DNA from: Candidatus Bathyarchaeia archaeon
Lineage (GTDB): Archaea > Thermoproteota > Bathyarchaeia > Bathyarchaeales > Bathycorpusculaceae
Direction: 5' to 3'
Length of the DNA: 64,000 bases
NCBI GenBank assembly: GCA_038882955.1
Contig: JAVZNC010000001.1
Coordinates: 32,001-96,000, forward strand
Position numbers and translations under genes: made by a program. Numbering within the stretch: the first letter of the stretch is position 1; each line of letters starts with the position of its first letter. The notes under the pieces were generated by a model. It had not been told where the DNA came from and did not search any database. It saw only the letters and a program-made list of their open reading frames with translations. Below are positions 16,004 through 43,131 of the stretch, piece after piece.

Positions 16004-16597
16004 TTGGTTAAGGTTTCGATTGCCCTTATAAAAGGTGTTTTAGGTTTGAGTTTGGAAGAAGAAAGTTTAGAGGAAAGAAAGGCGAAGATGCTCATAAAAC
16101 TTAGAGGCTACAAGCTCGTTAAAAGGGAAAAGTATGAGGATGCTGTTGGCTTTCTTGTTGAAATTCCAAAGGAGAAGGAAAAAGCCCTAATATGGTGCAT
16201 CCCAGAAGACAGCGCCGTTGGAATAACATCAATAAACCGCATGCAAAAAGTCATGAAGGAAGAAGGCATTGAAAGGGGAATAGTAATTACTGGCGGCAGA
16301 TACACACACGCCGTCAAGCAAGGCGCAAAGAAGAAGAAAATTGAGCTTTTACCAAAAACTTTTCCAGCATTCGACATTTTCGAACACAAGCTTGTTCCAA
16401 AACACGAGATCCTAACAGAGGAAGAGAAGGAGCAGCTTCTTGCGCAATATAAGGTTAAGCCTTACCAGCTTCCACAGATAAAGGCTTCAGACCCAGCCGT
16501 AAAAGCTATAGGCGCCAAGCCAGGCGACATACTACGCATAATCCGCAGAAGCCCTACAGCAGGCGAGCACATAGCTTATCGCTACGTTGTTGAATAG
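16004..16597 (+). CDS. rpoH: RNA polymerase subunit Rpo5/H with RPB5-like N-terminal jaw domain
   Basis: C-terminal [10 protein letters not shown]...LPQIKASDP...RRSPTAG.HIAYRYV, plus an extra ~110-aa N-terminal domain. Confidence 0.92.
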
Positions 16598-18413: not shown

Positions 18414-19115
18414 ATGAAGGTTAAGGCTGTCATCTTCGACCTGGACGGAACAATCGCAAAATTTAACATAGACTACAGGGCGGTTAGGGCTGAAGTTCGA
18501 AGTTTACTAATAAGGGCGGGAATGCCAGCATCAACGCTTTCCACAAACGAAAGCATATTCGAAATGTTGAAGAAAACCGAAATCTTCATGAAAAACAATG
18601 GACAGAATGAAAAGGCTATTGCCCAAATCCGCAGTGAAGCACTAGAAATAGCGGAAAAACACGAGTTGGAAGCCGCCAAATACACAACTCCATTTCCAGG
18701 AGTAAAAGAAACATTGAAAGCGTTAAAGGATATGAGCTTAAAGCTTGGATTATGCACAATAAACAGCGAAAAATCCACAGAGTACATACTAAAAAGGTTT
18801 AGAATAAGCGAATTTTTCGATGCATTAACTCCGAGGGACAAAGTGAAAAATGTTAAGCCAAACACGGAGCACCTCGAAGCTACATTAAAAACGTTAGGCG
18901 TTAAGCCTCAAGAAACTGTAGTTGTCGGCGACGGCGCAAACGACATGAAATGTGCAAGAGATTTAGGCGCCATAGCCGTGGGCATACCGACTGGCGTTTC
19001 AAGTCCAAAAGAACTGATAAGCTCTGGAGCGAACTACATGATAACCTCAATAACGGACTTGCCCACGTTAATAGGATACATAAACAAAAGCATGGAAGAA
19101 AAAAGCGAAAATTAG
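18414..19115 (+). CDS. HAD-superfamily hydrolase (phosphoglycolate phosphatase-like)
   Basis: FDLDGT, KP and VGDGAND motifs. Confidence 0.9.
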   Translation: MKVKAVIFDLDGTIAKFNIDYRAVRAEVRSLLIRAGMPASTLSTNESIFEMLKKTEIFMKNNGQNEKAIAQIRSEALEIAEKHELEAAKYTTPFPGVKETLKALKDMSLKLGLCTINSEKSTEYILKRFRISEFFDALTPRDKVKNVKPNTEHLEATLKTLGVKPQETVVVGDGANDMKCARDLGAIAVGIPTGVSSPKELISSGANYMITSITDLPTLIGYINKSMEEKSEN

Positions 19116-19516
19116 GCTGGTTTAAAGAAGTATCTGGGCCATTGGGGCCATTCTTGTGTTGCTGCGCATGTGCCAAAATCTATCGTTAATGGCATTCCGA
19201 TCTTTATCTGTTCTATGGCGACTCCTCTAATCATTCCTGGAATTTTCACGCCGTTTTCCAGCTCAACTATGCCAACAGCGTATGGAGCCATCCCCTGAAA
19301 CTGTGTCGGAGCCACGTAAATAACCGTATATGTTAAGAGTTTGCCTTTCTGTGGAAGTTCAACCCACTCGAAATCTTTTGAGTAGCATTTGTCGCATAGG
19401 GGTCTTGGCGGTAGATGAATTTTTCCGCATTGTTTGCATTTGCCGCCCATAAGCTTTCCTTGTAGAACATGCCTATAGAACTGTTCGATTGTGAACTGTG
19501 AGGTTTGCTCGCTCAT
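19112..19516 (-). CDS. DUF35 Zn-ribbon/OB-fold protein (thiolase partner)
   Basis: CKQCG..HLPPRPLCDKC, GKLLTYTVI and PYAVGIVEL. Confidence 0.92.
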   Translation of the reverse strand: MSEQTSQFTIEQFYRHVLQGKLMGGKCKQCGKIHLPPRPLCDKCYSKDFEWVELPQKGKLLTYTVIYVAPTQFQGMAPYAVGIVELENGVKIPGMIRGVAIEQIKIGMPLTIDFGTCAATQEWPQWPRYFFKPA

Positions 19517-19520
19517 CTTT

Positions 19521-20693
19521 TTAACCTCTCCTATAAATGTGAACTGCCGCTGTGGCGCCCGAACCTCCCACATTATGCGTTAGCCCTATCTCCGCATCTT
19601 TAACCTGCCTCTTCCCCGCTTGCCCAGTCAACTGCAAATAAACCTCATACGCTTGGGCTGTTCCAGTTGCGCCTACTGGATGTCCCTTCGCTTTTAATCC
19701 GCCGCTTGTGTTTACTGGAATTTTTCCGCCGAGTTTGGTTTCTCCACTTTCAGCTAGGGCGCCGCCTTCGCCTGGACTGCAGAATCCAAGGTCTTCGTAG
19801 GCTATTATTTCGGCTATTGTGAAGCAGTCGTGGATTTCAGCCACATCCATGTCTTCTGGCTTCAAGCCAGCCATTTCGTAGGCTTGTTTTGCCGCAAATT
19901 TGGCTGCTCTAAGCGACGTGAATTCTTCTCTTTCATACATGCCTATCGTTTCACTTGCTTGTCCACTCCCAATAATGTGAACTGGCGTGTCCGTGTATTT
20001 TTTGGCAAGCTCTGGCTTTGTTAGGATTAAACAGCTTGCGCCGTCGGTAATTAGGGAACAGTCGTAAAGTTTTAGGGGCCAAGCGATGACGCGCGAAGAC
20101 AAGGCAGTTTCAAGAGTTATTTCCTTCCGCATATGCGCTTTCGGGTTTAGACTCCCATGATAATGGTTTTTTACGGCCACATGTGCCAACTGCTCTTCTG
20201 TTGTGCCATATTTGTGCATGTGCGCCGTAGCCATCAAAGCAAACAAACCTGGAAAAGTTATGCCATGCCACTGCTCAAAGGGAAAATCAGAAGCCATAGC
20301 CAAATATTCCGTAACTTCAGGCGTTGTGCGGTGAGTCATCTTTTCAACGCCGCCAACCATTACGATGTCGCATAAACCAGAAAGAACAGCGTATATGGCT
20401 GCTCTTAATGCGGCTCCAGAAGAGGCGCATGCCGCTTCGGTTCTTGTTGCTGGTATATGCAGCAGTCCAGCCCAGTCCGCGGCCGTGGCGCCAGTATGCC
20501 CCTGATGCTCGTAGGATTCGCCCATGTGGCCAACGAAAAGGGCTTGAATATCCTTTTTGGGGTCTAGGTTTGGGCAGCGTTCAAACGCCTCTTTTGCTGC
20601 TTCCGCGAAGAGTTCTCTGGCGTATAAGCCTTCGCGTTTTCCAAATTTCGATAATCCAGCAGAAACAATTGAAACTAGGGGTTCGCCCTTCAA
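19521..20693 (-). CDS. Thiolase (archaeal acetyl-CoA C-acyltransferase, SCP2-type)
   Basis: EAACASSG (Cys), EIHDCF, KGHPVGATG and THNVGG; likely TTG start after AAGGAG. Confidence 0.93.
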   Translation of the reverse strand: MKGEPLVSIVSAGLSKFGKREGLYARELFAEAAKEAFERCPNLDPKKDIQALFVGHMGESYEHQGHTGATAADWAGLLHIPATRTEAACASSGAALRAAIYAVLSGLCDIVMVGGVEKMTHRTTPEVTEYLAMASDFPFEQWHGITFPGLFALMATAHMHKYGTTEEQLAHVAVKNHYHGSLNPKAHMRKEITLETALSSRVIAWPLKLYDCSLITDGASCLILTKPELAKKYTDTPVHIIGSGQASETIGMYEREEFTSLRAAKFAAKQAYEMAGLKPEDMDVAEIHDCFTIAEIIAYEDLGFCSPGEGGALAESGETKLGGKIPVNTSGGLKAKGHPVGATGTAQAYEVYLQLTGQAGKRQVKDAEIGLTHNVGGSGATAAVHIYRRG

Positions 20694-20834
20694 TGGGGTT
20701 TTCTCCTTCATTGGCATGTTAATGTAGAAAACTAAATATTGTTGGTACAAATATTTAAATGTGTTAACCAGTCTTCAGCCGTTTTCACGAGGAAAATTAA
20801 AAATAGGGGTTTGATCTGGAATTAAACCTTCAAA

Positions 20835-21521
20835 CTATTTTTGTCCGAAGGTTTTTCTAACCCAAGCCAATGTTTTTTCCATGTCTTCCCTGAAACGTTT
20901 AAGTTCTTCTGGAGTTCTTTTTGGCGGTTTAGGCTCTTCTGCTGGAGTTGCATAAACGTCGAGGAGGTCGCCTTTAGGCTGCTTCTCGATGTGTATGTTC
21001 ACTTTTAGGCCTATGTTCACTTTTTCCGGGTCAATGTTCCGCATTGTCATAGGCAAGCACGTGTTTGTTCCCTCTATGCGAACCATAGCGCCAACAAGCG
21101 GCTGCAGATGCGCCATTGAAGGCCAAGCAATAGCCATAACAGTGTACGAGTAAACTTCGCCTCTCTTTGGAAGCTCAATCCAAACCGTTTCCTGAAGCTT
21201 GCACTTTGGGTTGTAACAGTGAGCCCTTGGTGGACAATAGACTAAGCCGCATTTTGGACATTTTGTTCCATAAAGTTTGCCTTCTAAAAGGCCAGTAAAG
21301 AACTTTGAAACTTTGCCGTAGCTGTGATGGTAAAAGACCGCGTGTGGCCTATGCACAATCATAAACTGTTCAGGCTTCAAATCATTAAGCGTAGGCCCAT
21401 CATTCATCTCAACGATTTTCCAGCCTACAGGTCGCCATCCGCCTTCGCGTTCCCACTTCTCCCAGTACTTCTCGTCGATCTTCTGTTCTTTCAACACCTT
21501 TTCTGGTCCAGGCTGCTTCAT
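20835..21521 (-). CDS. Extended DUF35 Zn-ribbon/OB-fold protein
   Basis: CPKCG.VYCPPRAHC...C core with long N- and C-terminal extensions. Confidence 0.88.
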   Translation of the reverse strand: MKQPGPEKVLKEQKIDEKYWEKWEREGGWRPVGWKIVEMNDGPTLNDLKPEQFMIVHRPHAVFYHHSYGKVSKFFTGLLEGKLYGTKCPKCGLVYCPPRAHCYNPKCKLQETVWIELPKRGEVYSYTVMAIAWPSMAHLQPLVGAMVRIEGTNTCLPMTMRNIDPEKVNIGLKVNIHIEKQPKGDLLDVYATPAEEPKPPKRTPEELKRFREDMEKTLAWVRKTFGQK

Positions 21522-21524
21522 GGT

Positions 21525-22835
21525 CTATACCTCCAAAACCACGGCGCCTGCTTGGCACCCAGTGCCACCATGGCCATGCACAAAGCCCCGTTTGGGTTTG
21601 CTTAATTGCCTTCCAGGCGCGCCCCACTTTTTACCGATTTGGTTGCTTAATTGCCAATAGACATCAACAACTTGAGCGATTGATGTTGAGCCCACAGCAT
21701 GACCTTGAGCGGTTAAGGCGCCGCTGAGTTGACATGGAAGCTCACCGTCTGGAGCGATTACTCCTTCGCGAAGCAGTTTCTTTCCTTCTCCTCTTTTGCA
21801 GAAGTCGAAGTCTTCGAGAGCGGCTAAAACCACGCCAGCGTACGGGTCGAAGATTTCAACTAGGCTTATTTCTTTTCTCGGATTTTTTATTCCAGCATCT
21901 TTGTAGGCCATTCTTGCAGCTACACGAAGCGAGCCAAAGTTTGTTAAATCGGGATAAGGCGATAGTGGACGCGGAACCTCTTTAGGCCATATCTTCTCAT
22001 CTTCAGGATACAATCCTTTCCACGCAGGGTTGTCTGGGCGGTCTCCAGGCCTCATGGTATCTGTTCCAAAGCCTACGCCAGTTATCCAGACGGGATTGTC
22101 TGTTAATTTCTTTGTCATCTCTTCATTTGCCAAGAGCATGGCGGATGCTCCCTCGCTTGTCATGGCGCATTCAAGGAGTCTGTAGGGCCAAGAGATTAAC
22201 CGTGATTTGTAGACGTCTTCCACTGTTATTTTGCTGAAGCCGTGCTGAGCTGGCCATTGGGCGTATGGGTTGTCGAGTGAGTTGTTGTGGCAGAGAACGG
22301 CGACTTCAGCTAAATCTTCTTCTGTTTCTCCATATACGTGCATTCGCCTAGTTTCGAGCGTGGCGTAAAAAGCGTTGTATGTAAAACCTGAAACGAAGTC
22401 CCAGTCAGTATCACCTGCGATGGCTATTGCCTCGTTGACTTTTTGGATGGGCAGCTCGTTCATTTTTTCCCATCCAACAACAAGAACCACGGGGAACATG
22501 CCCGATCGAATCCACAGAGTTGCATTTACTATTGCGTCGATTGGTGTTGCTCCGCCGGATTCAACGCGGAAGGCGGGTACTCCGCTTAAGCCTAAGTAAT
22601 CGTGGATTATCCAGTGCATGCATTGTTGCTGTTCAAGGATGTCGCTGAAGTAAGAGTAGCAGCACGCGTATCCTTTCTTTATGAAATCTCCAATTTCGAG
22701 GTCTGGTACATCGTCCAGTACCATTTTAACTGCTTCAGCGCACATTTCTTCTTGCAGCGTATGCCTCGGGTTGTCGAATCTTGATATGCCTCCTGCAACT
22801 ATCCCAACTTTTTTCGACAAGTTTCTCCACCTCAT
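21525..22835 (-). CDS. Thiolase-fold protein lacking the nucleophilic Cys
   Basis: RVESGGAT in place of EAAC, EIFDPY in place of EIHDCF; GHAVGST retained. Confidence 0.88.
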   Translation of the reverse strand: MRWRNLSKKVGIVAGGISRFDNPRHTLQEEMCAEAVKMVLDDVPDLEIGDFIKKGYACCYSYFSDILEQQQCMHWIIHDYLGLSGVPAFRVESGGATPIDAIVNATLWIRSGMFPVVLVVGWEKMNELPIQKVNEAIAIAGDTDWDFVSGFTYNAFYATLETRRMHVYGETEEDLAEVAVLCHNNSLDNPYAQWPAQHGFSKITVEDVYKSRLISWPYRLLECAMTSEGASAMLLANEEMTKKLTDNPVWITGVGFGTDTMRPGDRPDNPAWKGLYPEDEKIWPKEVPRPLSPYPDLTNFGSLRVAARMAYKDAGIKNPRKEISLVEIFDPYAGVVLAALEDFDFCKRGEGKKLLREGVIAPDGELPCQLSGALTAQGHAVGSTSIAQVVDVYWQLSNQIGKKWGAPGRQLSKPKRGFVHGHGGTGCQAGAVVLEV

Positions 22836-22947
22836 TTATGAAGGGTAGCTATTGATTAAGTGGGTATAAGATTTTTGTGGAAAAATGATCCCAAAATTAT
22901 GGACACTTTAAGAATCTTTTTATAACGTCTAACACCAATTTCAATGC

Positions 22948-24042
22948 ATGCAAATACTGAAATTAGCCACAGCTTTACCGAAAAATGCACATTCGACGGA
23001 AAAGCTTTTAGAAGCATTTCCGTGTCAGCTTCCCGAAGGCGTAAGACAAAACGTGCTTAACTTAGGAGTTCTAAGGCGCTACCTTATCAACAATGCCAAT
23101 TCGGAAACTGAATTGATTGAACTTTGCGTGGAAGCATGCCATAAAGCTATCCAAAAGGTTGGCATACCGACTAGAAAAATTGGATTTATCATCGCGGCTT
23201 ATGATGCAAATCCATTTTTAAGTCCAGGTTTAAGTCAACTTCTCATTCGCAGCATAGGCTTTAACCCTTACATTAGGCATGTTAACGTTCAAGGAATAGC
23301 CAGCACAGCGTTTCCAAAAACACTAGAGGTTGCGGAAAACTATCTTGCTGTTCACCCCAAAGATTGTGTCTTAATATGTGTTTCTGGAGTGAGCTCCTAC
23401 TGGTTCCAAAATCAGATTCGCGGCATAAAAGATGTTATGGACATCAGCCAAATACGCCAAATAAAAGATAAAGTCAAACAGCAAATGGAACTGCAAAAAT
23501 GGATTGCAGTTATGGAGTATTTCCTTTTCGGAGACGGCGTAGCCGCCGCAGTTGTGGCGAATTATGATGAAGGCTTAGCTTTTAAGAAAAGTGTTGAAGT
23601 CACAAACTTGGGTAAAAGGGATTACTTGGCTGGCTACGCTAGAATTTTGGCATCGAACGAGCCTTTCAAGTTTGGCTTTTGCTCGTATTTAGACAAGGAA
23701 ATCCCGCAGCTTGGAGTCAAATACACTGGTTTAGCCCTCAAAAAACTTCTCGGAAAGAACATGAAAGAAACGATTAAAGCTGCAAAGAAATTGGCAATTC
23801 ACACTGGAAGCGAAAAAATCCTAAAGGCTATGGCAGAACATCATGAAATTGAACATGAAAAACTAAGGGAATCATATGAAGTGCTTAGGGAATACGGTAA
23901 CTTGGCGGGCGCAAGCTTGCCCTTTATTCTTGAAAGGATAATTTCACACAACAAATTAGGTGATGGCGACATAATTCTGATGCTAGGGTACGGGTGGGGC
24001 TTTTCAGCTTCTGCCGCCCTATTAGAATTCAAAACAATGTAG
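22948..24042 (+). CDS. Type III PKS/KAS III-like condensing-fold enzyme with Ser at the catalytic Cys position
   Basis: LFGDGVAAAV, AIHTGS (His), YGNLAGAS (Asn) and LGYGWGF; QGIAST where G.GC is expected. Confidence 0.8.
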   Translation: MQILKLATALPKNAHSTEKLLEAFPCQLPEGVRQNVLNLGVLRRYLINNANSETELIELCVEACHKAIQKVGIPTRKIGFIIAAYDANPFLSPGLSQLLIRSIGFNPYIRHVNVQGIASTAFPKTLEVAENYLAVHPKDCVLICVSGVSSYWFQNQIRGIKDVMDISQIRQIKDKVKQQMELQKWIAVMEYFLFGDGVAAAVVANYDEGLAFKKSVEVTNLGKRDYLAGYARILASNEPFKFGFCSYLDKEIPQLGVKYTGLALKKLLGKNMKETIKAAKKLAIHTGSEKILKAMAEHHEIEHEKLRESYEVLREYGNLAGASLPFILERIISHNKLGDGDIILMLGYGWGFSASAALLEFKTM

Positions 24043-24281
24043 GAAAAAATTTCACTTGTATGGCAACGTCAATTTTACAAGTTGAAACTGCGCAAAATTG
24101 GATACCCCCCTCTAGATTTTTCTCCGCCATGAACAGCCTTCGTTAAAAAATCGCCATCCTCCAAACTCATTTTGAATGCACTCTTTCAAATGATTGTTTC
24201 ATGGCTTGTTTGAGAAATAACTTTTTAGGTTTGACGCCGATATTTAGTTCAAAACCAGCCTACAATAGGGGTTGATGCAGC

Positions 24282-25961
24282 ATGTTTGACAAGCAGAAAA
24301 TCGATGAAATAGTCAAAGAAAGGGAACGTTGGGAAAGGACTACTTTGCCAAACTGGATTAGGCAGTGTCCAGAAAGGCAGAAGGAATTTCGCAATCATTC
24401 TGGTATCGAGATAAAGCGCCTTTACACTCCAGAAGACGTTAAGGAAATGGATTATATGCGTGACCTTGGCTTTCCAGGCGAATACCCGTTCACGAGGGGA
24501 TTACACGCAACAATGTATCGTGGGCGATTGTGGACTATGCGCATGTTTGCTGGTTATGGCACAGCCGCGGACACAAACAAGCGCTTCAAATACTTGCTAA
24601 GCGAAGGCGAAACGGGCTTAAGCACGGCTTTCGACTATCCAACGATTATGGGTTATGATTCCGACCACCCCATGGCGAAGGGCGAAGTCGGCGTCTGCGG
24701 AGTAGCCATCTCATCACTGCAGGACATGGAAGTTCTGTTCGACGGCATACCGTTGGACAAGGTTACAACTTCAATGACTATAAATGGTCCAGCGACGGTG
24801 CTGCTTGCGATGTACGTTGCCGTAGGCGACAAGCAAGGAGTTCCTAGGGAAAAGCTTGGCGGGACAACTCAAAACGACAACTTGAAAGAGTTTTTCGCCC
24901 AGAAATTGTGCATTTTTCCGCCGGAGCCTTCGCTTAAGCTTTCAACAGACATAATCGAATACTGCGCTAGGCACCTGCCAAAATGGAACCCAATAAGCAT
25001 AAGTGGCTACCACATACGCGAGGCAGGCGCCACAGCGCTTCAAGAGTTGGCTTTCACGCTTTATGATGGAATAGCCTACGTCGAATCCACATTAAAGAGA
25101 AGCTTAAAAGTCGACGACTTCGCCCCGAGACTATCATTCTTCTTCGCTTCACACAATGACTTTTTCGAGGAAATAGCCAAGTTCCGCGCAGCACGACGGT
25201 TATGGGCTAGGATAATGAAGGAGCGCTTCCACGCGAAAAATCCGAGGTCTATGTGGATGCGCATGCATGTGCAAACTTCAGGCTGCACATTAACAGCCCA
25301 GCAGCCACTAAACAATATTGTACGCACCACAATTCAGGCGCTTGCCGCGGTTCTTGGCGGAACCCAATCCCTACACACAAACTCTTTTGACGAAGCCTTA
25401 TGTTTGCCAACAGAGGAGTCCGTAAGAGTTGCCTTGCGAACACAGCAGATAATCGCCTACGAAAGCGGGGTGACAAACACCGTTGACCCGCTTGCAGGCT
25501 CCTATTACGTTGAAGCCTTAACAAACGAGATGGAGGAGAAAGCCATGGAGTACATCCAAAAAATAGACGACATGGGCGGCGTCATACCCGCGATAGAGAA
25601 GGGCTTTTTCCAGAGGGAAATTGCTGACAGCGCGTATAGGTACCAGCGCGAAATTGAGGAGAAAAAGCGCATAATAGTCGGCTTAAACGAGTACACAATT
25701 GAAGAGGAATGTCCAATAGAACTTTTGAGGGTGGACCCGAAGGTTGAGGAAGAGCAAGTTGAAAGGCTGCAAAAGCTAAAAAGGGAAAGGGATAACAGAA
25801 AAGTTAAGGAAGTCCTTGAAAAACTTCATTACGCGGCACAGAAGGATGAAAACCTCATGCCGACAATAATTGAGGCTGTGAAAGCCTACGCCACCTTAGG
25901 CGAAATAACGGATGTGCTGCGCAAAGTTTACGGAGAATATAAAGAATTAATACTAATCTAA
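24282..25961 (+). CDS. B12-dependent acyl-CoA mutase large subunit, isobutyryl-CoA mutase-like
   Basis: [17 protein letters not shown] (Phe at the MCM Tyr89 position), KEFFAQK (Gln at the MCM Arg207 position), SISGYHIRE. Confidence 0.93.
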
Positions 25962-25965
25962 ATGG

Positions 25966-26379
25966 TTGGTGAAAGCCATGCGAAAGAAAATTAGAGTATT
26001 AGTCGCAAAGCCTGGTTTGGACAGCCACGACAGAGGAGCAAAAGTTGTGGCAAGAGCCTTAAGGGACGCTGGGATGGAAGTAATATACACTGGTTTGAGG
26101 CAGACTCCAGAACAAATAGTTGAGGCAGCACTGCAAGAGGACGTTGACGTGATAGGTTTGAGTATACTCTCTGGAGCGCATAAGGCGCTTTTCCCAAAAA
26201 TAATGCAACTGCTAAAAGAGAAGGGCTTAACAGACGTCCTTGTTTTCGCGGGCGGAATAATTCCAGAAGAGGACATACCGGAGCTGAAGAAGATAGGGAT
26301 TAAGGAGGTTTTTGGTCCAGGAACTCCAACGGAAAAGATAATTCAGTGCATTTTGGATTACTGTTCAAAAAGAGCCTAA
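25966..26379 (+). CDS. Cobalamin-binding small subunit of the acyl-CoA mutase
   Basis: [10 protein letters not shown] (DxHxxG), GLSILSG and GGII. Confidence 0.95.
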
Positions 26380-26392
26380 AGATGTGTAGCAA

Positions 26393-27346
26393 TTGATAAG
26401 AACAGAAGAGATAGTCAAGGGCGTCCTATCTGGCGACAGAAGAAGCATAGCAAAGGCAATAACAATAATTGAAAACAACGAGCCACAGGCAAAAGAAATA
26501 ATTGCCACTATTTATCCGCACACTGGGAAAGCCCACGTGATAGGATTAACGGGTCCAGGTGGTTCTGGCAAAAGCACACTGATAGAAAAGATTGTTTGCG
26601 AGTATAGGCGGATGGGTAGGAAAGTTGGCGTCGTCGCCGTTGACCCTACAAGCCCGTTCACTGGCGGAGCGTTTCTAGGCGACAGAATTAGGATGCAAGA
26701 GTTAAGCACCGACCCGGAAGTCTTCATTAGAAGCATGGCTACACGCAACTATTCTGGCGGAATCGCGAAGGCGACAAGCGACGCCGTGAAAGTCTTGGAT
26801 GCCGCTGGAAAAGACGTGGTTATCGTGGAAACAGTCGGCGCTGGACAATCTGAAGTTGAAATTGTGAAGGTAGCACAAACCATAGTGGTCATACATGCTC
26901 CTGGACTTGGAGACGAGATACAGGCGATAAAGGCTGGTTTGATGGAGATAGCCGACATATTCGTTGTTAACAAGGCTGATAGAGAGAATGCCGACAAAGC
27001 CGTCATCGACATTCAAGCAATGTTACAGTTAAACAATAAGGAAAAAGCTTGGCGAATCCCAATAGTGAAAACAGTTGCGCTCACTGGAGAAGGTGTCCCA
27101 GAGCTAATTGAAAAACTTGAAGAGCACAAAAAATTTTTGGAAACGGAGAAACAGCGCGAAAAAGCCCTGTTAAAGGCTGAAGCGGAACTTGTAGAGGCGA
27201 TTAAGGATAAAGTTGCCCAGTCAATAGTTGAAGAGCTGAAAAAAGAAGGAAAATTTGAGGAACTGCTTGAAAAAATCGTTAAGAAGGAAATAGACCCAGC
27301 ATCAGCCGCTGAAAAGTTTCTTCGAGAAAAGCTGAGGAAGGCGTAA
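26393..27346 (+). CDS. meaB: MeaB/ArgK mutase-associated GTPase chaperone
   Basis: GPGGSGKST, AVDPTSP.TGGAFLGDRIRM, ETVGAGQSE and NKAD. Confidence 0.95.
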   Translation: MIRTEEIVKGVLSGDRRSIAKAITIIENNEPQAKEIIATIYPHTGKAHVIGLTGPGGSGKSTLIEKIVCEYRRMGRKVGVVAVDPTSPFTGGAFLGDRIRMQELSTDPEVFIRSMATRNYSGGIAKATSDAVKVLDAAGKDVVIVETVGAGQSEVEIVKVAQTIVVIHAPGLGDEIQAIKAGLMEIADIFVVNKADRENADKAVIDIQAMLQLNNKEKAWRIPIVKTVALTGEGVPELIEKLEEHKKFLETEKQREKALLKAEAELVEAIKDKVAQSIVEELKKEGKFEELLEKIVKKEIDPASAAEKFLREKLRKA

Positions 27347-27353
27347 ACCAGAA

Positions 27354-27881
27354 ATGGGCAAGCTTGAGAAGGGACTTGTTCAAGTTTACACTGGGAATGG
27401 GAAGGGCAAAACAACAGCGGCTTTCGGCTTAGCCCTAAGAGCCATAGGAAGAGGCTTAAAAGTTTACGTTATACAGTTCATTAAGGGCGGATTCGATTAT
27501 GGCGAGCTCTACATTGCTGATAAACTGCCAAACCTCACATTGAAAGCCTTTGGGATGGGCAAGTTTATAATGGAAAAGCCTTCCGCGGAGGACATTAAAA
27601 GCGCCGAGGAAGCCTTGTCGCTGGCTGAAGCAGTTGTGAAAAGCGGGGAATACGACATAGTGATTTTGGACGAGATAAATGTTGCATTAAAATTGAAGCT
27701 GATAAGCCTTGAAAGGGTTCTAAAGCTGATAAAAGGCAAGCCGAAACACGTTGAACTGGTGTTGACTGGAAGATACTCTCCAAACGAGATAATAGAAGCA
27801 GCGGACTTGGTCACAGAAATGAGGGAGGTCAAGCACCCATACAATAAGGGGTACCAAGCCAGAAAAGGAATAGAATTTTAA
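27354..27881 (+). CDS. cobO: Cob(I)alamin adenosyltransferase (CobA/BtuR type)
   Basis: YTGNGKGKTTAA, QFIKG, LDEI, LTGR and ADLVTEM..KHP. Confidence 0.95.
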   Translation: MGKLEKGLVQVYTGNGKGKTTAAFGLALRAIGRGLKVYVIQFIKGGFDYGELYIADKLPNLTLKAFGMGKFIMEKPSAEDIKSAEEALSLAEAVVKSGEYDIVILDEINVALKLKLISLERVLKLIKGKPKHVELVLTGRYSPNEIIEAADLVTEMREVKHPYNKGYQARKGIEF

Positions 27882-38972: not shown

Positions 38973-39304
38973 TCGCTGCCTCCAGCGGTTTCCTCTGTTT
39001 CGCCTTTTTCAGCTAACTCGAGTATTTCCGAGTCGCCTGGTTCTCTTATACTTAACGCTGAAACAACATAAGGTTTTCCACAGACGGCAGCCAAATCCAT
39101 TGATGAACCCTTATAGACGATTAGCGGTACTTTTGAAAGTTTGCAGTAGTATTCGATGTCCTCGCGTATGTTTTTTGGACAATTCGAAGCCAAAATTATC
39201 ATTTTCGCCCTTCCAGTTTTGGCGCTGTGTATGGCTGTGTTCGCACCGAAAAATACTTTGCCCGTTTTTACGGCTGTGGCTATTGCCTTGTCTATGTCAA
39301 TCAT
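38969..39304 (-). CDS. rpl30e: 50S ribosomal protein L30e
   Basis: AVKTGKVFFG, ASNCP and CGKPY.VS...I..PGDS.I. Confidence 0.96.
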   Translation of the reverse strand: MIDIDKAIATAVKTGKVFFGANTAIHSAKTGRAKMIILASNCPKNIREDIEYYCKLSKVPLIVYKGSSMDLAAVCGKPYVVSALSIREPGDSEILELAEKGETEETAGGSE

Positions 39305-42300
39305 TTCTCGTTTTTCCTCCCCATCTCGAACGTGGACATGTATAATTCAACTAACCCAGTGCCTATTGGTATTGACTGCCCAACTATAACGTTTTCAGTT
39401 ACGCCCTCAAGCGGGTCACTTTCGCCCTTAACCGCGGCATCAACAATGTTTGGAACAGTTATCTCAAACGCCGCCCTAGCCAAAACACTTGATTTCTTCC
39501 CACTTATGCCGTGCCTTCCTATCTGCTGCACTTCGCCGGTGGAAGTCATCATGTCAGCAACAAGCATAACGTGGCGGACATCAACGTCCAGCCCTTGCTC
39601 TTCTAGAACACCTCTAGACTCGTTTATTAGGGCGTTTCTGGCTGCTTCTATGCCCAAAGTTTTGGCTATTTCATGAATGTTGTTTGTTGTTGTCCGCGAG
39701 GTGTCCACTCCACAAATTTCAAGAACCTTGGGTAAGTTTGAACCGTCCGTTCTTATAATCCATTCTCCCTTTTCTTCGGTGACGAGAACACGCTTTATGC
39801 CCTGGATGCCCTTAATGTAGAACGCGGAGATTTTATCAAGCAGCTTTTTGAGGTTTTCCTCCTTTTTGGGTTTCACGCGTATCGTGTTGCCCTTCATTTT
39901 TATCGTGCAGTTTTGGATTTGCAGCTTTTCTTTAAGTTCTTCAAGTGTTACGCCTCGGTCTTCCATCATAACCTTGTTGAGTTCCACAACAATCTCGCCG
40001 CGGACAGCATCCTCGTATATGGCTCGCGCCAAATTCTCCAATGCTGTGTAAACTATGTTTCTGGCAATTTTAACAGCTGCCTCTCTGCTCTTCCTATGCT
40101 TTTCAGTTAAGTAAATAGTCATTATTGGCGTTGATGGAATACGCCTAGCATCAACAATCTCTATCAGCCTCGGCAACCCCAATGTTACGTTTTGTTCCCT
40201 AACACCAGCATAGTGGAATGTCCTAAGCGTCATCTGTGTGCCGGGCTCTCCTATTGATTGGGCTGCGATTATGCCGACTGCTTCGCCCGGTTCCATCAAA
40301 GAGCGCTTATAATGTTCGACTGTTAGTTTTACGGCTTTGTCCACTCCTTCCTTGCTTATTTTTGCTTTTGAGAGGCTTTGTTTGAGTTCGTCTATAAGCA
40401 GGGGCGTAAGCTGGTCTTCAACTTCCTTAATCTTCTTTTTAATGTATTCGGCTTCTGCGGGTTTGCCGCGTCCAGTTGCGATTCTTATTTGGTCGACGAG
40501 TCTGCTGACGTTCACGGCTTTTCCATGGTCGCTTTTCGCTGGGTCAACCCCGTCCTCGCCATATTTGAATTGGATTATGTCTCCAGCAGAGTTCCTAACC
40601 GTTCCATCGTATTCTAGGCGTATGTGCTCGAGCGCATTGATTAGCCGTCTCTGCATGTAACCGCTTTGCTGCGTCCTAACGGCGGTGTCAACAAGCCCCT
40701 CGCGCCCGCCCATGGCATGGAAGAAGAATTCAATGGAGTCAAGTCCTTTCTGATAGGATGAGTAGACGAACCCCCTAGCCCTTGGACTTGGGTCACCAGT
40801 TTTAAAGTGCGGAAGAGCGCGTCCGATGTATCCACGCAATATTCTTTTGCCTCGCACCGACTGCTGCCCGACACAGGCGCTCATTTGCCCGATGTTTAGG
40901 CTTGAACCCCGCGCACCTGTTCGCGTCATCACTATGCCAGCGTTTTCAAGCGTGAAATCCCGGTCTGCTATTTTGCCAGCTTCATCTCTTGCCGTGGCAA
41001 GTTCGTTCATAACGTAAATTTCAAAGGACTCTTCAAGCGTCTGTCCTGGAAGCCCCTGCAGTGTGCCGTTTCGATAGCTTTCTATTAGTTCTTCAACTTT
41101 TTTCTGAACCCTTTCCATGGTCTTCTTTATCTTGTTTTCAGCTTCTGGCGAGAGGACAAGCTCTTTATATGAGTATGTGAAGCCCCTCATTGAAATGAAG
41201 AGCTTCAGAAGTCTTGTTATTTTGTTTAGAAATTCCCGTCCAGCCTTTGTTCCATAATCCTTTATTATTCTGTGGAGGAGGCTTTCAGATTGTTCAGCGC
41301 CTATTGAACGCCTATCTATAACGCCGCTTATTAACTCGCCATTTTTCACAACAACATACGCGTCATGCGGACAGTTCTCCTCTTGGCACTTGACGCATCC
41401 TTGGCAAATCGTCGCTTTCAGAACGTAGTTAAAATCTTTTGGTAGAAAGAGGCTAAAAATCTGTTTACCAGTCCAAAGCGGCTGCGGCTCCTTTATTTTC
41501 GGCTCTGGAAGTGGCCCATCATACCCTGCTGCTGCGAGTAGTCTACCAACTTCACTTCCCGTCAAATAATTGTTTTTTCTTGTGAATAAATAAGCTGCTG
41601 TTATGAAATCGCGTATCGCCCCAATTATTGGACCGCCAAACCTCGGCGAAAGTATCTGGTCTTGAACCTGCATTAGCATCAGCGCCTCTGTACGTGCTTC
41701 TTCGCTTTGCGGTATGTGAAGGTTCATTTCGTCTCCGTCGAAGTCCGCGTTGTATGGTGGACAGACGCAGAGATGCAAACGGAAGGTTTTGTATGGCAAA
41801 ACGCGAACGTAATGCGCCATAATAGACATTCTGTGAAGCGATGGCTGACGATTAAAGATGGCTATGTCCCCGTTTTTAAGGTGCCTCTCAACAATGTAGC
41901 CTGGCTCCACCGCCTCAGCAATCTTCGTCCTATCAGTCACAAACTCAAGCCTTATACGTTTACCGTCAGGTCTAATAATGTAAAGCGCTCCTGGATATTT
42001 TTCAGGTCCATTTATGACTAATTTCCGCATTTCCTCAATATTCCATTCTGTAACTTTTTCTGGCACGGATAGGCGCATGGCAACTTCCTGTGGTACGCCA
42101 ACTTCGCTTATATCAAGGTTCGGGTCTGGCGATATGACTGTTCTCGCCGAGAAGTCAACACGCTTTCCAGAGAGATTGCTTCTGAATCTTCCCTCTTTGC
42201 CCTTCAGTCTTTGCGAGAGCGTTTTTAAAGCTCTTCCTGAGCGGTGTCTTGCTGGCGGTATGCCAGACGCCTCATTGTTGAAGTATGTGGTCACATGGTA

Positions 42301-43131
42301 CTGTAGGAGTTCTGAAAGGTCTTGAATTATGAGGGTTGGGGCTCCAGCATCCATGTTCTCTTTTAATCTCTGGTTTATGCGTATTATGTCCACAAGTTTG
42401 TGGGTTAAGTCGTCTTCCGAGCGTATGCCCGACTCAAGTGTGATTGATGGGCGAACGTAAACTGGCGGAACCGGAAGAACTTGTAGAACCATCCATTCTG
42501 GACGAGCAGCTTTGGAATTAAAACCTAAAATTTCAAGGTCGTCGTCCGGGATGCGTTCAAGTCTCTCGCGAACCATGCTCGGCGTTAGCGGTTCTGAACC
42601 GCTTTCTGGAATCTGCTCGCTAAATTTTGTTGGTTTCTCAAAAGTTATTTTGTACTGGACCGCGCCGCAGTGTGGACACTGTTTGGTTTTCGCCTCTTGT
42701 ACGACTCCCTTGCTAACCTCGTCTGGAACAACGCCAAGAAGCTGTTTAGTTTTTCCAATTTTTGCCTTCACACGCTTTATGGTTTCGTCTGGCAGCAGTA
42801 TGCGTCCGCAGTTCCTGCATGTTGCCCTCAAAAGGTCATAGATTAACTTTGTAAATTCTATGTGTATAATGGGAACGGCAAGTTCAATATGCCCGAAATG
42901 CCCTGGACACCTAACCGCAGTGTTTCCGCACGTCTTGCATCTTTGCCTCGGCTCTAAAGTCCCAAGCCTGCCATCCATAAGCCCAGCGGTTATTGGCGCG
43001 CCATCCTCGTCATAAGTGTCTGGCGTTTGAATCTCCACAACGGACAACTTGCGAATCTCTTGTGGCGAGAACAATCCGAATCGGATTTCATCTACAACTT
43101 TATGCACTATTTCTTCTACAGCCATAATCAT
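39301..43131 (-). CDS. rpoA: RNA polymerase largest subunit, fused A'/A''
   Basis: NADFDGDEMN, GKRVDFSAR and QSIGEPGTQMTLRTFH all in one 1276-aa ORF. Confidence 0.98.
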   Translation of the reverse strand: MIMAVEEIVHKVVDEIRFGLFSPQEIRKLSVVEIQTPDTYDEDGAPITAGLMDGRLGTLEPRQRCKTCGNTAVRCPGHFGHIELAVPIIHIEFTKLIYDLLRATCRNCGRILLPDETIKRVKAKIGKTKQLLGVVPDEVSKGVVQEAKTKQCPHCGAVQYKITFEKPTKFSEQIPESGSEPLTPSMVRERLERIPDDDLEILGFNSKAARPEWMVLQVLPVPPVYVRPSITLESGIRSEDDLTHKLVDIIRINQRLKENMDAGAPTLIIQDLSELLQYHVTTYFNNEASGIPPARHRSGRALKTLSQRLKGKEGRFRSNLSGKRVDFSARTVISPDPNLDISEVGVPQEVAMRLSVPEKVTEWNIEEMRKLVINGPEKYPGALYIIRPDGKRIRLEFVTDRTKIAEAVEPGYIVERHLKNGDIAIFNRQPSLHRMSIMAHYVRVLPYKTFRLHLCVCPPYNADFDGDEMNLHIPQSEEARTEALMLMQVQDQILSPRFGGPIIGAIRDFITAAYLFTRKNNYLTGSEVGRLLAAAGYDGPLPEPKIKEPQPLWTGKQIFSLFLPKDFNYVLKATICQGCVKCQEENCPHDAYVVVKNGELISGVIDRRSIGAEQSESLLHRIIKDYGTKAGREFLNKITRLLKLFISMRGFTYSYKELVLSPEAENKIKKTMERVQKKVEELIESYRNGTLQGLPGQTLEESFEIYVMNELATARDEAGKIADRDFTLENAGIVMTRTGARGSSLNIGQMSACVGQQSVRGKRILRGYIGRALPHFKTGDPSPRARGFVYSSYQKGLDSIEFFFHAMGGREGLVDTAVRTQQSGYMQRRLINALEHIRLEYDGTVRNSAGDIIQFKYGEDGVDPAKSDHGKAVNVSRLVDQIRIATGRGKPAEAEYIKKKIKEVEDQLTPLLIDELKQSLSKAKISKEGVDKAVKLTVEHYKRSLMEPGEAVGIIAAQSIGEPGTQMTLRTFHYAGVREQNVTLGLPRLIEIVDARRIPSTPIMTIYLTEKHRKSREAAVKIARNIVYTALENLARAIYEDAVRGEIVVELNKVMMEDRGVTLEELKEKLQIQNCTIKMKGNTIRVKPKKEENLKKLLDKISAFYIKGIQGIKRVLVTEEKGEWIIRTDGSNLPKVLEICGVDTSRTTTNNIHEIAKTLGIEAARNALINESRGVLEEQGLDVDVRHVMLVADMMTSTGEVQQIGRHGISGKKSSVLARAAFEITVPNIVDAAVKGESDPLEGVTENVIVGQSIPIGTGLVELYMSTFEMGRKNEK

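Follow-up and report, generated by a model that had tools for sequence, protein, structure and literature searches.

The 64,000-nucleotide stretch of DNA analysed here, which we call the window (contig C1:32001-96000 of a 1.54-Mb archaeal genome of the class Bathyarchaeia), carries a divergent cluster of nine genes. These are a B12-dependent acyl-CoA mutase with its support proteins, two thiolase-type proteins each paired with a DUF35 protein, and KS3Ser, a relative of the condensing enzymes with a serine in the place of the catalytic cysteine. The genome is 95.6% complete, with 6.1% contamination, and may come from a hot-spring DNA sequencing run that holds 92% of the words searched. No RNA run was among the sequencing runs listed; two labelled as metatranscriptomic hold 6%, and are flagged as probably DNA. 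The nine open reading frames (ORFs), exactly where the original prediction had placed them, fill positions 19112-27881 and leave no space for further ORFs. Domains were called with Pfam and NCBIfam profiles and their cut-offs, and the cluster reads as follows.

19112..19573, minus strand: DUF35a, zinc-ribbon and OB-fold protein, partner of ThlA (153-aa ORF; PF01796 8.7e-20, PF12172 2.3e-11)
19521..20750, minus strand: ThlA, SCP2-type/archaeal thiolase, catalytically complete (409-aa ORF; NF004720 517 bits)
20835..21521, minus strand: DUF35b, 228 aa with N- and C-terminal extensions, partner of ThlB (PF01796 1e-9, PF12172 1.1e-9)
21525..22835, minus strand: ThlB, thiolase-fold protein of 436 aa without the thiolase catalytic residues (alignment to 7yvy and 6esq)
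22836..22947, no strand: divergent intergenic region of 112 bp between thlB and KS3Ser (sequence reading)
22948..24042, plus strand: KS3Ser, 364 aa, similar to FabH, type III polyketide synthases (PKSs) and ketoacyl synthase (KAS) III (Pfam ACP_syn_III_C, Chal_sti_synt_C)
24282..25961, plus strand: MutL, large (substrate) subunit of the MM_CoA_mutase family (PF01642 785 bits)
25966..26379, plus strand: MutS, B12-binding small subunit (TIGR00640 184 bits, cut-off 57)
26393..27346, plus strand: MeaB, G-protein chaperone (TIGR00750 364 bits, cut-off 241)
27354..27881, plus strand: CobA/BtuR-type ATP:corrinoid adenosyltransferase (PF02572 1.4e-67; TIGR00708 205 bits, cut-off 168)

The minus-strand genes are transcribed in the order ThlB, DUF35b, ThlA, DUF35a. 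The ThlA ORF is drawn from an upstream TTG and its real start probably lies about 12 codons further in, while DUF35a probably starts at the Met at residue 20, immediately past the ThlA stop. On the other side of the divergent region, TTTTTATAA at 22917-22925, 23-31 nt upstream of the KS3Ser ATG, looks like a TATA box and is predicted as such.

MutL has the fold of an acyl-CoA mutase large subunit (TIGR00641 854 bits, cut-off 304). In alignments with sequences of the Protein Data Bank (PDB), its Phe89 and Gln207 fall on a Tyr and an Arg of human methylmalonyl-CoA mutase (MCM), and its Ala116 on an Asp of the 2-hydroxyisobutyryl-CoA mutase (HCM) subunit HcmA (4r3u). We take the substrate-specificity positions to be Tyr89 and Arg207 of MCM, and the HcmA Asp to be Asp117. 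HcmA, the top-scoring PDB sequence for MutL overall, carries Ile and Gln at the Tyr89/Arg207 positions. In an alignment of annotated genes, a PGAP-named IcmF and a Natrinema plasmid gene have Phe/Gln, and ScpA of Escherichia coli and Rhizobium, as well as two mutase-family genes from Acetoanaerobium and Streptomyces canus, have Tyr/Arg. Phe/Gln is also found in 28 of 29 syntenic MutL homologues. By its residues, MutL carries the signature of an isobutyryl-CoA mutase (ICM), which agrees with the "ICM-type" label it had been given, and the MutL/MutS enzyme most likely interconverts isobutyryl-CoA and butyryl-CoA. Three other identities were rejected: a methylmalonyl-CoA mutase (Phe/Gln instead of Tyr/Arg; NF006944 681 bits, cut-off 876), a 2-hydroxyisobutyryl-CoA mutase (Phe and Ala instead of the Ile and Asp of HcmA), and a fused IcmF (NF045497 399 bits, cut-off 1500; separate genes).

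The support for the B12 cofactor is complete, as originally claimed: separate genes for MutS, MeaB and the adenosyltransferase adjoin MutL, and all three score above their profile cut-offs. The DSHDRG, SIL and GG motifs can be seen in the MutS sequence. Both MutS and MeaB have a single match in the genome (tblastn). A second large subunit, of the Tyr/Arg kind and 67% identical to MutL, lies on contig C3 (C3:5983-11469, locus L001) next to a transcarboxylase-like set of biotin-carrier, 5S-type and 12S-type carboxyltransferase genes; it has no MutS alongside, and an operon for carbon monoxide dehydrogenase/acetyl-CoA synthase (CODH/ACS) is located about 2 kb away. In three loci of a distant family (L075, L076, L094), Phe/Gln and Tyr/Arg large-subunit genes stand back to back, with one MutS and one MeaB found in L075 and in L076, and MeaB only in L094. 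The lone MutS and MeaB, together with these back-to-back arrangements, make a sharing of subunit and chaperone likely; the single MutS and MeaB of the window therefore probably also serve the Tyr/Arg (methylmalonyl-CoA) mutase from the other contig.

On a quick tree of 53 large-subunit rows, whose root on the long IcmF branch is unreliable, Phe/Gln and Tyr/Arg are separated by one change (support of 98 in the approximate likelihood-ratio test, SH-aLRT), and the main Bathyarchaeal Phe/Gln clade holds 37 rows (support 99). An independent origin of the Phe/Gln mutase from a Bathyarchaeal MCM is not supported, as the tree needs only that one change. Copies were typed by direct reading of the residues because an identity threshold misleads: a 70%-identical copy in genome G130 is Tyr/Arg. 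A third kind of large subunit, 47-49% identical to MutL, was observed in Bathyarchaeia (loci L147-L152, in genomes G004, G022, G029, G149, G161 and G173). For the two specificity residues, five of these genomes show Leu/Gly and G004 shows Leu/Arg, which match no mutase form known to us.

The two thiolase/DUF35 pairs of the original prediction turned out to be of different kinds. The pair of ThlA and DUF35a is complete. ThlA passes its profile (NF004720, cut-off 420), scores 326 bits to the acetyl-CoA acetyltransferase 7yvy, and has the CxS nucleophile, HDxF and GHx motifs given for archaeal thiolases in the consulted parts of one study (PMC12960953), as C108-A-S, H307-D-C309-F and G-H357; of 30 rows, 29 retain them. 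With the solved thiolases 7yvy and 6esq, ThlB can be aligned from end to end. Here, Gly95 replaces the nucleophilic Cys and F329-D-P331-Y replaces H-D-C-F, and only the G-H379 is retained. Among the aligned ThlB rows, 33/34 have this Gly and 33/34 the Phe, the remaining row being a gap. ThlB is below every NCBIfam cut-off (best 329 bits, cut-off 695), and a protein atlas look-up returned only generic thiolase/lipid-transfer clusters. Judged by these residues, the ThlB-DUF35b pair cannot act as a thiolase. ThlB was rejected as an SCP2-type thiolase, with neither the CxS Cys nor the HDxF His left, and as an aldolase of the Ltp2/Sal type, whose catalytic Tyr position is Phe in the same 33 rows.

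Despite lacking thiolase residues, ThlB is the best-conserved protein of the cluster. Identities in the relatives are 86-99% for ThlB, 80-96% for DUF35b, 79-95% for MutL, 79-91% for ThlA and 59-88% for KS3Ser. Many polar residues of ThlB are invariant even in comparison with relatives of 48-57% identity. The zinc-ribbon cysteines of DUF35b do not vary across 28 rows. In both DUF35 proteins the zinc-ribbon and OB-fold Pfam domains are above cut-off. A complex prediction for ThlB, residues 30-228 of DUF35b and KS3Ser, run without controls, gave a score of 0.00 and speaks neither for nor against binding.

The condensing enzyme had been described as Ser-type, and this was upheld. In alignments with CylI and Pks18, Ser119 of KS3Ser takes the position of the catalytic Cys, and the enzyme retains His285 and Asn318. 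The AlphaFold (AF2) model (predicted local distance difference test, pLDDT, 86.9) has CylI, PKS18, ADS and THNS as its best Foldseek matches, with template-modelling (TM) scores of 0.73-0.80, E-values around 1e-25 and 15-21% identity; the modelled fold is thus type III PKS-like. KS3Ser was nevertheless rejected as a canonical type III PKS, as the Cys-His-Asn triad is replaced by Ser119-His285-Asn318, and also, on its family score, as an HMG-CoA synthase (NF003274 21.8 bits, cut-off 244). Set against the Ser-His-Asp triad of DpsC-like acyltransferases, KS3Ser has a Ser and a His but an Asn as the third residue, and no DpsC chain was noticed in the titles of the best 60 PDB rows.

Among 1.84 billion protein representatives, the KS3Ser family has 20 members at E <=1e-30 and 136 at E <=1e-10. 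The triad is Cys-His-Asn in 120 of the 121 representatives with lengths of 300-450 aa, the exception being a 324-aa sequence with Ser-His-Glu, and the family has the motif 'HTGS' in place of 'HPGG'. The nearest 120 of 725 word-search matches are all at least 66% identical to KS3Ser. A residue census of the window protein and 49 of 50 related loci shows Ser (GIASTAF) in 36/50 rows and Cys (GMACxAF) in 14/50, with His285 and Asn318 each kept in 48/50 rows (the others being one Gln and gaps). In a tree built from 33 proteins of the Ser type and 8 of the 14 of the Cys type, which includes the columns of the trait itself, the Ser forms are one clade (SH-aLRT 100) nested among the Cys forms. Four positions alone separate the Ser-type from the Cys-type: 92 (Ser/Cys), 117 (Ile/Met), 119 (Ser/Cys) and 149 (Ser/Asn). 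At the level of alignment and tree, the Ser form is derived within a Cys-His-Asn family. That His and Asn have been kept in a clade whose members have drifted to 59% identity speaks for a functional active site, and KS3Ser has probably lost covalent thioester catalysis while keeping the His/Asn chemistry.

The nine genes are also linked in relatives. Of the 50 related loci found with KS3Ser, 22 have the complete set of nine with order and orientation unchanged, and contig ends truncate most of the others. The original prediction had named unlinked genes in relatives as the finding that would count against it; the linkage proves to be strong. With 22 complete copies, the arrangement is not due to chance. 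Forty-eight of the loci are labelled Bathyarchaeota or Bathyarchaeia. The remaining two (L030 and L035) are filed as Acidobacteriota metagenome-assembled genomes (MAGs), have the full Bathyarchaeal gene order and 62% KS3 identity, and their label is probably a binning error. Of the 35 Ser-type genes, 33 have ThlB upstream (the other two, L021 and L038, are contigs of about 3 kb), and ThlA/DUF35a come next in 27 of the 28 Ser-type loci whose upstream flank reaches 4.2 kb or more. By comparison, a ThlB of 80%-plus identity is found beside none of the 14 Cys-type genes. Two of these (L026 and L033) precede a Phe/Gln mutase operon, and others adjoin genes for acyl-CoA dehydrogenase (ACAD) and electron-transfer flavoprotein (Etf), or Tyr/Arg mutase and transcarboxylase genes. 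In one genus (L085:7341-10701, and L026 likewise), the Cys-type KS3 is preceded by two extra thiolase-fold genes, one with Gly at the nucleophile position and the other unaligned there, accompanied by two DUF35 genes beside the normal ThlA/DUF35a.

The connection between KS3Ser and the mutase is looser than the description of the cluster as contiguous implies. Where a Ser-type locus has 7 kb of flank or more, MutL follows in 22 of 24 cases (exceptions L022 and L042). The two genes are 239 bp apart in the window and 83 to 5064 nt apart in the set. In 14 relatives the gap exceeds 600 nt, and in 11 of these it contains ORFs on the opposite strand. No constant extra gene emerged from the gap ORFs: in the 17 of 23 that were scanned, a Cys/Met-metabolism enzyme dependent on pyridoxal phosphate (PLP) occurs in three loci and GrpB in three, and the rest are unrelated or without a family. 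The PLP enzyme (L007, L009 and L010, opposite strand) belongs to the methionine gamma-lyase/cystathionine synthase family; if it were a gamma-lyase, it would yield 2-oxobutyrate and hence propionyl-CoA.

How far the association extends was assessed across 201 sampled genomes of the class: 61 of them have mutase large subunits, 17 have ThlB-like genes and nine have KS3 genes. The signature residues could be read in 54 of the 60 mutase genomes other than that of the window, the six left out having fragments only. At least 43 of the 201, including the window's own, have a Phe/Gln mutase (G163 was typed on the Gln alone). A Phe/Gln copy is found in 13 of the 17 ThlB-like genomes and in eight of the nine KS3 genomes. 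ThlB-like proteins at 48-53% identity likewise have Gly for Cys. In families f29 and f26, ThlB-like and DUF35b-like genes directly adjoin the Phe/Gln mutase. In locus L077, for example, ThlB, DUF35b, MutL, MutS, MeaB and the adenosyltransferase are consecutive on one strand, and ThlA, DUF35a and a hydroxyacyl-CoA dehydrogenase (HCDH) run divergently from this row. The unit of ThlB, DUF35b, ThlA and DUF35a recurs in five more loci. This linkage in distant families points to an old and broad association of the mutase with the ThlB/ThlA/DUF35 unit. KS3 is a later, lineage-specific addition to it, and one genome of 97% completeness (G118) has a ThlB of the window's type without any KS3 match.

The rest of the genome supplies much of what a short-chain acyl-CoA pathway would need. 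Etf alpha and beta genes stand directly before a row of ACAD, HCDH, ACAD, thiolase, DUF35 and acyl-CoA ligase genes, and a fused HCDH/enoyl-CoA hydratase is also present. We found six matches to alpha subunits of 2-oxoacid oxidoreductases and six of the ADP-forming synthetase type. A gene for a branched-chain amino-acid permease and one for a periplasmic binding protein adjoin another thiolase/DUF35/HCDH set. Of branched-chain biosynthesis, neither ilvC nor ilvD nor any member of the Iso_dh family was detected here, and all 14 control genomes have them; ilvB is on a contig of 6 kb and an aconitase-family gene on one of 8 kb. HMG-CoA synthase and methylmalonyl-CoA epimerase had been described as missing from the window, and neither is among its 32 ORFs scanned between 10669 and 46493; both exist elsewhere in the genome. 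A canonical HMGCS with a DUF35 fusion lies with its thiolase on contig C10, and the epimerase is at C1:145981-146364, about 50 kb past the window end. Contig C2 (C2:16345-18946; L004:6345-8946) has a thiolase whose partner, an HMGS-like/DUF35 fusion, is 470 aa long (209 bits, HMGCS cut-off 244); a fused HCDH/hydratase and a family III CoA-transferase adjoin them. This set resembles the bacterial ACAT/HMGS-DUF35 sets, as far as these are covered in the consulted parts of PMC12960953.

We read the cluster best as the short-chain acyl-CoA module of amino-acid-scavenging Bathyarchaeia. In this reading, isobutyryl-CoA would have isobutyrate as its source, or valine by way of a 2-oxoacid:ferredoxin oxidoreductase. 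MutL/MutS, provided with adenosylcobalamin by the adenosyltransferase and MeaB, would interconvert it with butyryl-CoA, which the Etf, ACAD, HCDH and hydratase encoded elsewhere would take to acetoacetyl-CoA. The pair of ThlA and DUF35a, as terminal thiolase, would cleave this into two acetyl-CoA, and the ADP-forming acyl-CoA synthetases could gain ATP from them. ThlB-DUF35b may be a non-catalytic or differently catalytic partner of ThlA-DUF35a in the conserved four-gene unit. The His/Asn chemistry of KS3Ser, which probably works with ThlB-DUF35b, might be a decarboxylation of (methyl)malonyl-CoA or an acyl-O-Ser transfer. With the beta-oxidation, oxidoreductase and synthetase genes present and those of branched-chain biosynthesis missing, a catabolic funnel is the most economical reading. 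A scavenging way of life is also favoured by the wider sample: ilvC, present in 145 of the 201 genomes, is lacking in 35 of the 43 that have a Phe/Gln mutase, as compared with 21 of the 158 others. Of the two fates that the original prediction had offered, catabolism fits the genome best. We give this route, from isobutyryl-CoA to cleavage by the thiolase/DUF35 unit, an even chance of being correct; its substrate, its direction and every protein contact are what we infer.

Several points weigh against this catabolic reading. The Phe/Gln signature indicates only a substrate free of carboxylate, and the pairs isovaleryl/pivalyl-CoA and 2-methylbutyryl/valeryl-CoA, or an unknown one, are possible as well. 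The mutase reaction is reversible and may run either way. The dehydrogenase and hydratase steps are absent from the cluster itself. ThlB and KS3Ser, the most unusual proteins, are needed by nothing in the catabolic pathway, and the very high conservation of ThlB, with its invariant polar residues, is hard to square with a mere scaffold. In other families (13 loci, 44 of 86 ORFs scanned), the neighbours of the mutase or the thiolase unit are mostly housekeeping genes, with the exceptions of an HCDH (L077), an ACAD (L087) and an oxidoreductase alpha subunit (L088). The simple counts overstate the association of the Phe/Gln mutase with the loss of ilvC, since the genomes are kin and several are incomplete, and eight genomes have both ilvC and the Phe/Gln mutase (G005, G017, G023, G111, G123, G163, G191 and G200). 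Finally, the contamination of the genome, with ilvB on a 6-kb contig, has to be counted here too.

An alternative is that KS3Ser, ThlB and DUF35b, with or without ThlA/DUF35a, form an undescribed thiolase-superfamily machine for C-C chemistry on the C4 acyl-CoA of the B12 mutase. It would be built like the archaeal HMG-CoA synthase/thiolase/DUF35 complex, and its reaction on the mutase substrate or product would be independent of Cys or depend on that of ThlA, for example a decarboxylative condensation of methylmalonyl-CoA with butyryl- or isobutyryl-CoA. Such a machine is favoured by the single Ser clade and the exclusive company that this clade keeps (ThlB upstream in 33/35 Ser loci, 0/14 Cys loci), by the retained His285 and Asn318, and by the type-separating positions, two of the four being Cys-to-Ser changes. 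Two Cys-type loci (L039 and L084) adjoin Tyr/Arg mutase and transcarboxylase genes, a source of methylmalonyl-CoA. Trios of KAS-like, thiolase-like and DUF35 proteins are a known architecture, according to the consulted parts of PMC12960953. KS3Ser is however type III PKS-like and not HMGS-like, and G118 manages with the same type of ThlB and no KS3. Furthermore, we know of no enzyme of this fold that condenses without Cys. On balance we regard the new machine as a tentative and rather doubtful proposal.

Several known systems come close to parts of the cluster. The thiolase of the archaeal HMGS/thiolase/DUF35 complex and 7yvy are the closest sequences to ThlA and ThlB, and the DUF35 partners are common to both systems. 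In the window, however, the neighbouring third superfamily gene is type III PKS-like and not an HMGS, ThlB has neither the CxS Cys nor the HDxF His, and the genome has its real HMGCS/thiolase set on C10. As described in the available passages of PMC12960953, PhlACB and the streptococcal SmaATase are precedents for trio members that lost canonical catalytic residues and gained new work; PhlC was among the PDB matches of ThlB. In those trios it is the HMGS-like subunit that is dead, the thiolase-like one having its Cys, whereas here the thiolase-like ThlB has lost the Cys and its partner is of another family, with a Ser. Ltp2/Sal aldolases and TbSLP have, like ThlB, a thiolase fold without the nucleophilic Cys and are bound to DUF35 proteins, according to parts of PMC12329534. 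Their catalytic Tyr (YDHF, YDCY, YDCF) corresponds to the Phe of FDPY in ThlB, and the Cys of the motif to the Pro. The type III PKSs CylI, PKS18 and THNS are the best sequence and fold matches of KS3Ser and share the His and Asn of the triad; they differ from it by their low identity and by the Cys in place of Ser.

A second alternative reverses the direction. Acetyl-CoA from the Wood-Ljungdahl pathway would be condensed by the thiolase/DUF35 unit, reduced to butyryl-CoA, isomerised by the mutase to isobutyryl-CoA and reductively carboxylated to a valine precursor, with 2-oxoisovalerate:ferredoxin oxidoreductase as the carboxylating enzyme, and the route would replace the missing IlvC and IlvD. 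The genome has CODH/ACS genes and the six oxidoreductase alpha subunits, and lacks any detected ilvC or ilvD. Across the 201 genomes, the anticorrelation between Phe/Gln mutase and ilvC is strong, and it is repeated within families: in f5, the mutase occurs without ilvC in genus g20, and ilvC without the mutase in 5/5 genomes of genus g21, with similar contrasts within f1 and f31. The thiolase/DUF35 complexes of Sulfolobus acidocaldarius favour condensation, as reported in the accessible part of a preprint (bioRxiv 10.1101/2024.07.05.601840). That KT/DUF35 fatty-acid-synthase complex likewise has a thiolase/DUF35 pair at the core of a CoA-dependent short-chain pathway. The window cluster differs from it in having no reductase, MaoC dehydratase or enoyl reductase, and two thiolase-type subunits, one of them inactive.

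Auxotrophs burning off their surplus valine would, however, be expected to show the same anticorrelation just as well. Leucine could not follow, as the Iso_dh family (LeuB) is missing too, and the genome has the branched-chain amino-acid permease gene and the periplasmic binding-protein gene. Moreover, Hou et al. 2023 describe, in the parts consulted, Bathyarchaeia lineages and orders without the pathways for valine and other amino acids (PMC10321748), a multi-pathway loss that reads as general auxotrophy. A link between the loss of the valine pathway and an ICM-type mutase did not surface in the titles, abstracts and passages of the literature searched. We consider an anabolic bypass unlikely.

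Least of all do we expect KS3Ser to be a type III PKS that extends isobutyryl-CoA with (methyl)malonyl-CoA into a branched-starter polyketide or lipid, for although the fold and the adjacent supplier of isobutyryl-CoA would suit it, the catalytic Cys kept by nearly the whole family (120/121) is Ser, no biotin carboxylase was found in the genome, the cluster has no tailoring or export genes, and opposite-strand ORFs separate KS3Ser from the mutase operon in 11 of the 14 long-gap relatives, which makes a classical polyketide role unlikely and weakens the ketide branch of the original prediction.

For the catabolic reading there is a bacterial counterpart. The isobutyrate-isomerising Syntrophothermus lipocalidus has mutase proteins of the N- and C-domain, an adenosyltransferase and a MeaB-like protein, and a beta-oxidation route that ends in two acetyl-CoA, according to the consulted parts of PMC5017805; its ICM cluster (Slip_0757-0760) has the same four-gene composition as the mutase module of the window. 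The named IcmF has the same Phe/Gln as MutL, which is unfused and only 38% identical to IcmF over the mutase domain. In contrast to the bacterial ICMs, the window's module is archaeal and tied to a thiolase/DUF35 unit, and a Tyr/Arg paralogue probably draws on its B12 subunit and chaperone as well.

Downstream of the minus-strand genes, one further feature borders the cluster:

18414..19115, plus strand: HAD-family hydrolase, convergent on DUF35a (PF13419 9e-31)

In 17 of the 50 loci, a homologue of it (55-78% identity) occupies the same strand as DUF35a and lies upstream of that gene, and two more weak matches sit elsewhere in their loci. In a family whose mutase lies elsewhere, an HAD_2 protein (L082:9150-9830) was observed beside the thiolase unit. 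The hydrolase is a frequent neighbour, and an accessory role is only possible. Two other genes of the window concern RNA polymerase. Subunit A (39301-43131, minus strand) is a single ORF of 1276 aa with Rpb1 domains 1-5 and is therefore unsplit (no A'/A''). At 16004-16597 (plus strand), the C-terminal domain of Rpb5 (subunit H) is fused to an N-terminal domain similar to Mrr-type restriction endonucleases.

Bathyarchaeia are one of the most abundant lineages in sediments and hot springs, and the ICM-type mutase is widespread in them and tracks the loss of the valine pathway. In the consulted passages of a 2010 review, ICM is known from bacteria only (PMC2847961), and no archaeal ICM-type enzyme turned up in the literature searched. 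The catabolic reading offers a testable route by which Bathyarchaeia could gain a second ATP from valine or isobutyrate, and the mutase may explain the isomerisation of butyrate and isobutyrate in anoxic habitats. As one B12 subunit and one chaperone seemingly serve two large subunits that differ in specificity, the module would be a simple system for the study of cofactor delivery.

The thiolase/DUF35 family has already given the HMG-CoA channel, a Friedel-Crafts acylase and steroid aldolases. The switch of KS3 from Cys to Ser coincides exactly with its becoming the neighbour of ThlB, and both proteins are promising places to look for chemistry or assembly rules that are new to this family. 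If KS3Ser, ThlB and DUF35b do form one machine, it would be a third functional type of the HMGS/thiolase/DUF35 architecture, in which neither of the new subunits, KS3Ser and ThlB, holds a catalytic cysteine.

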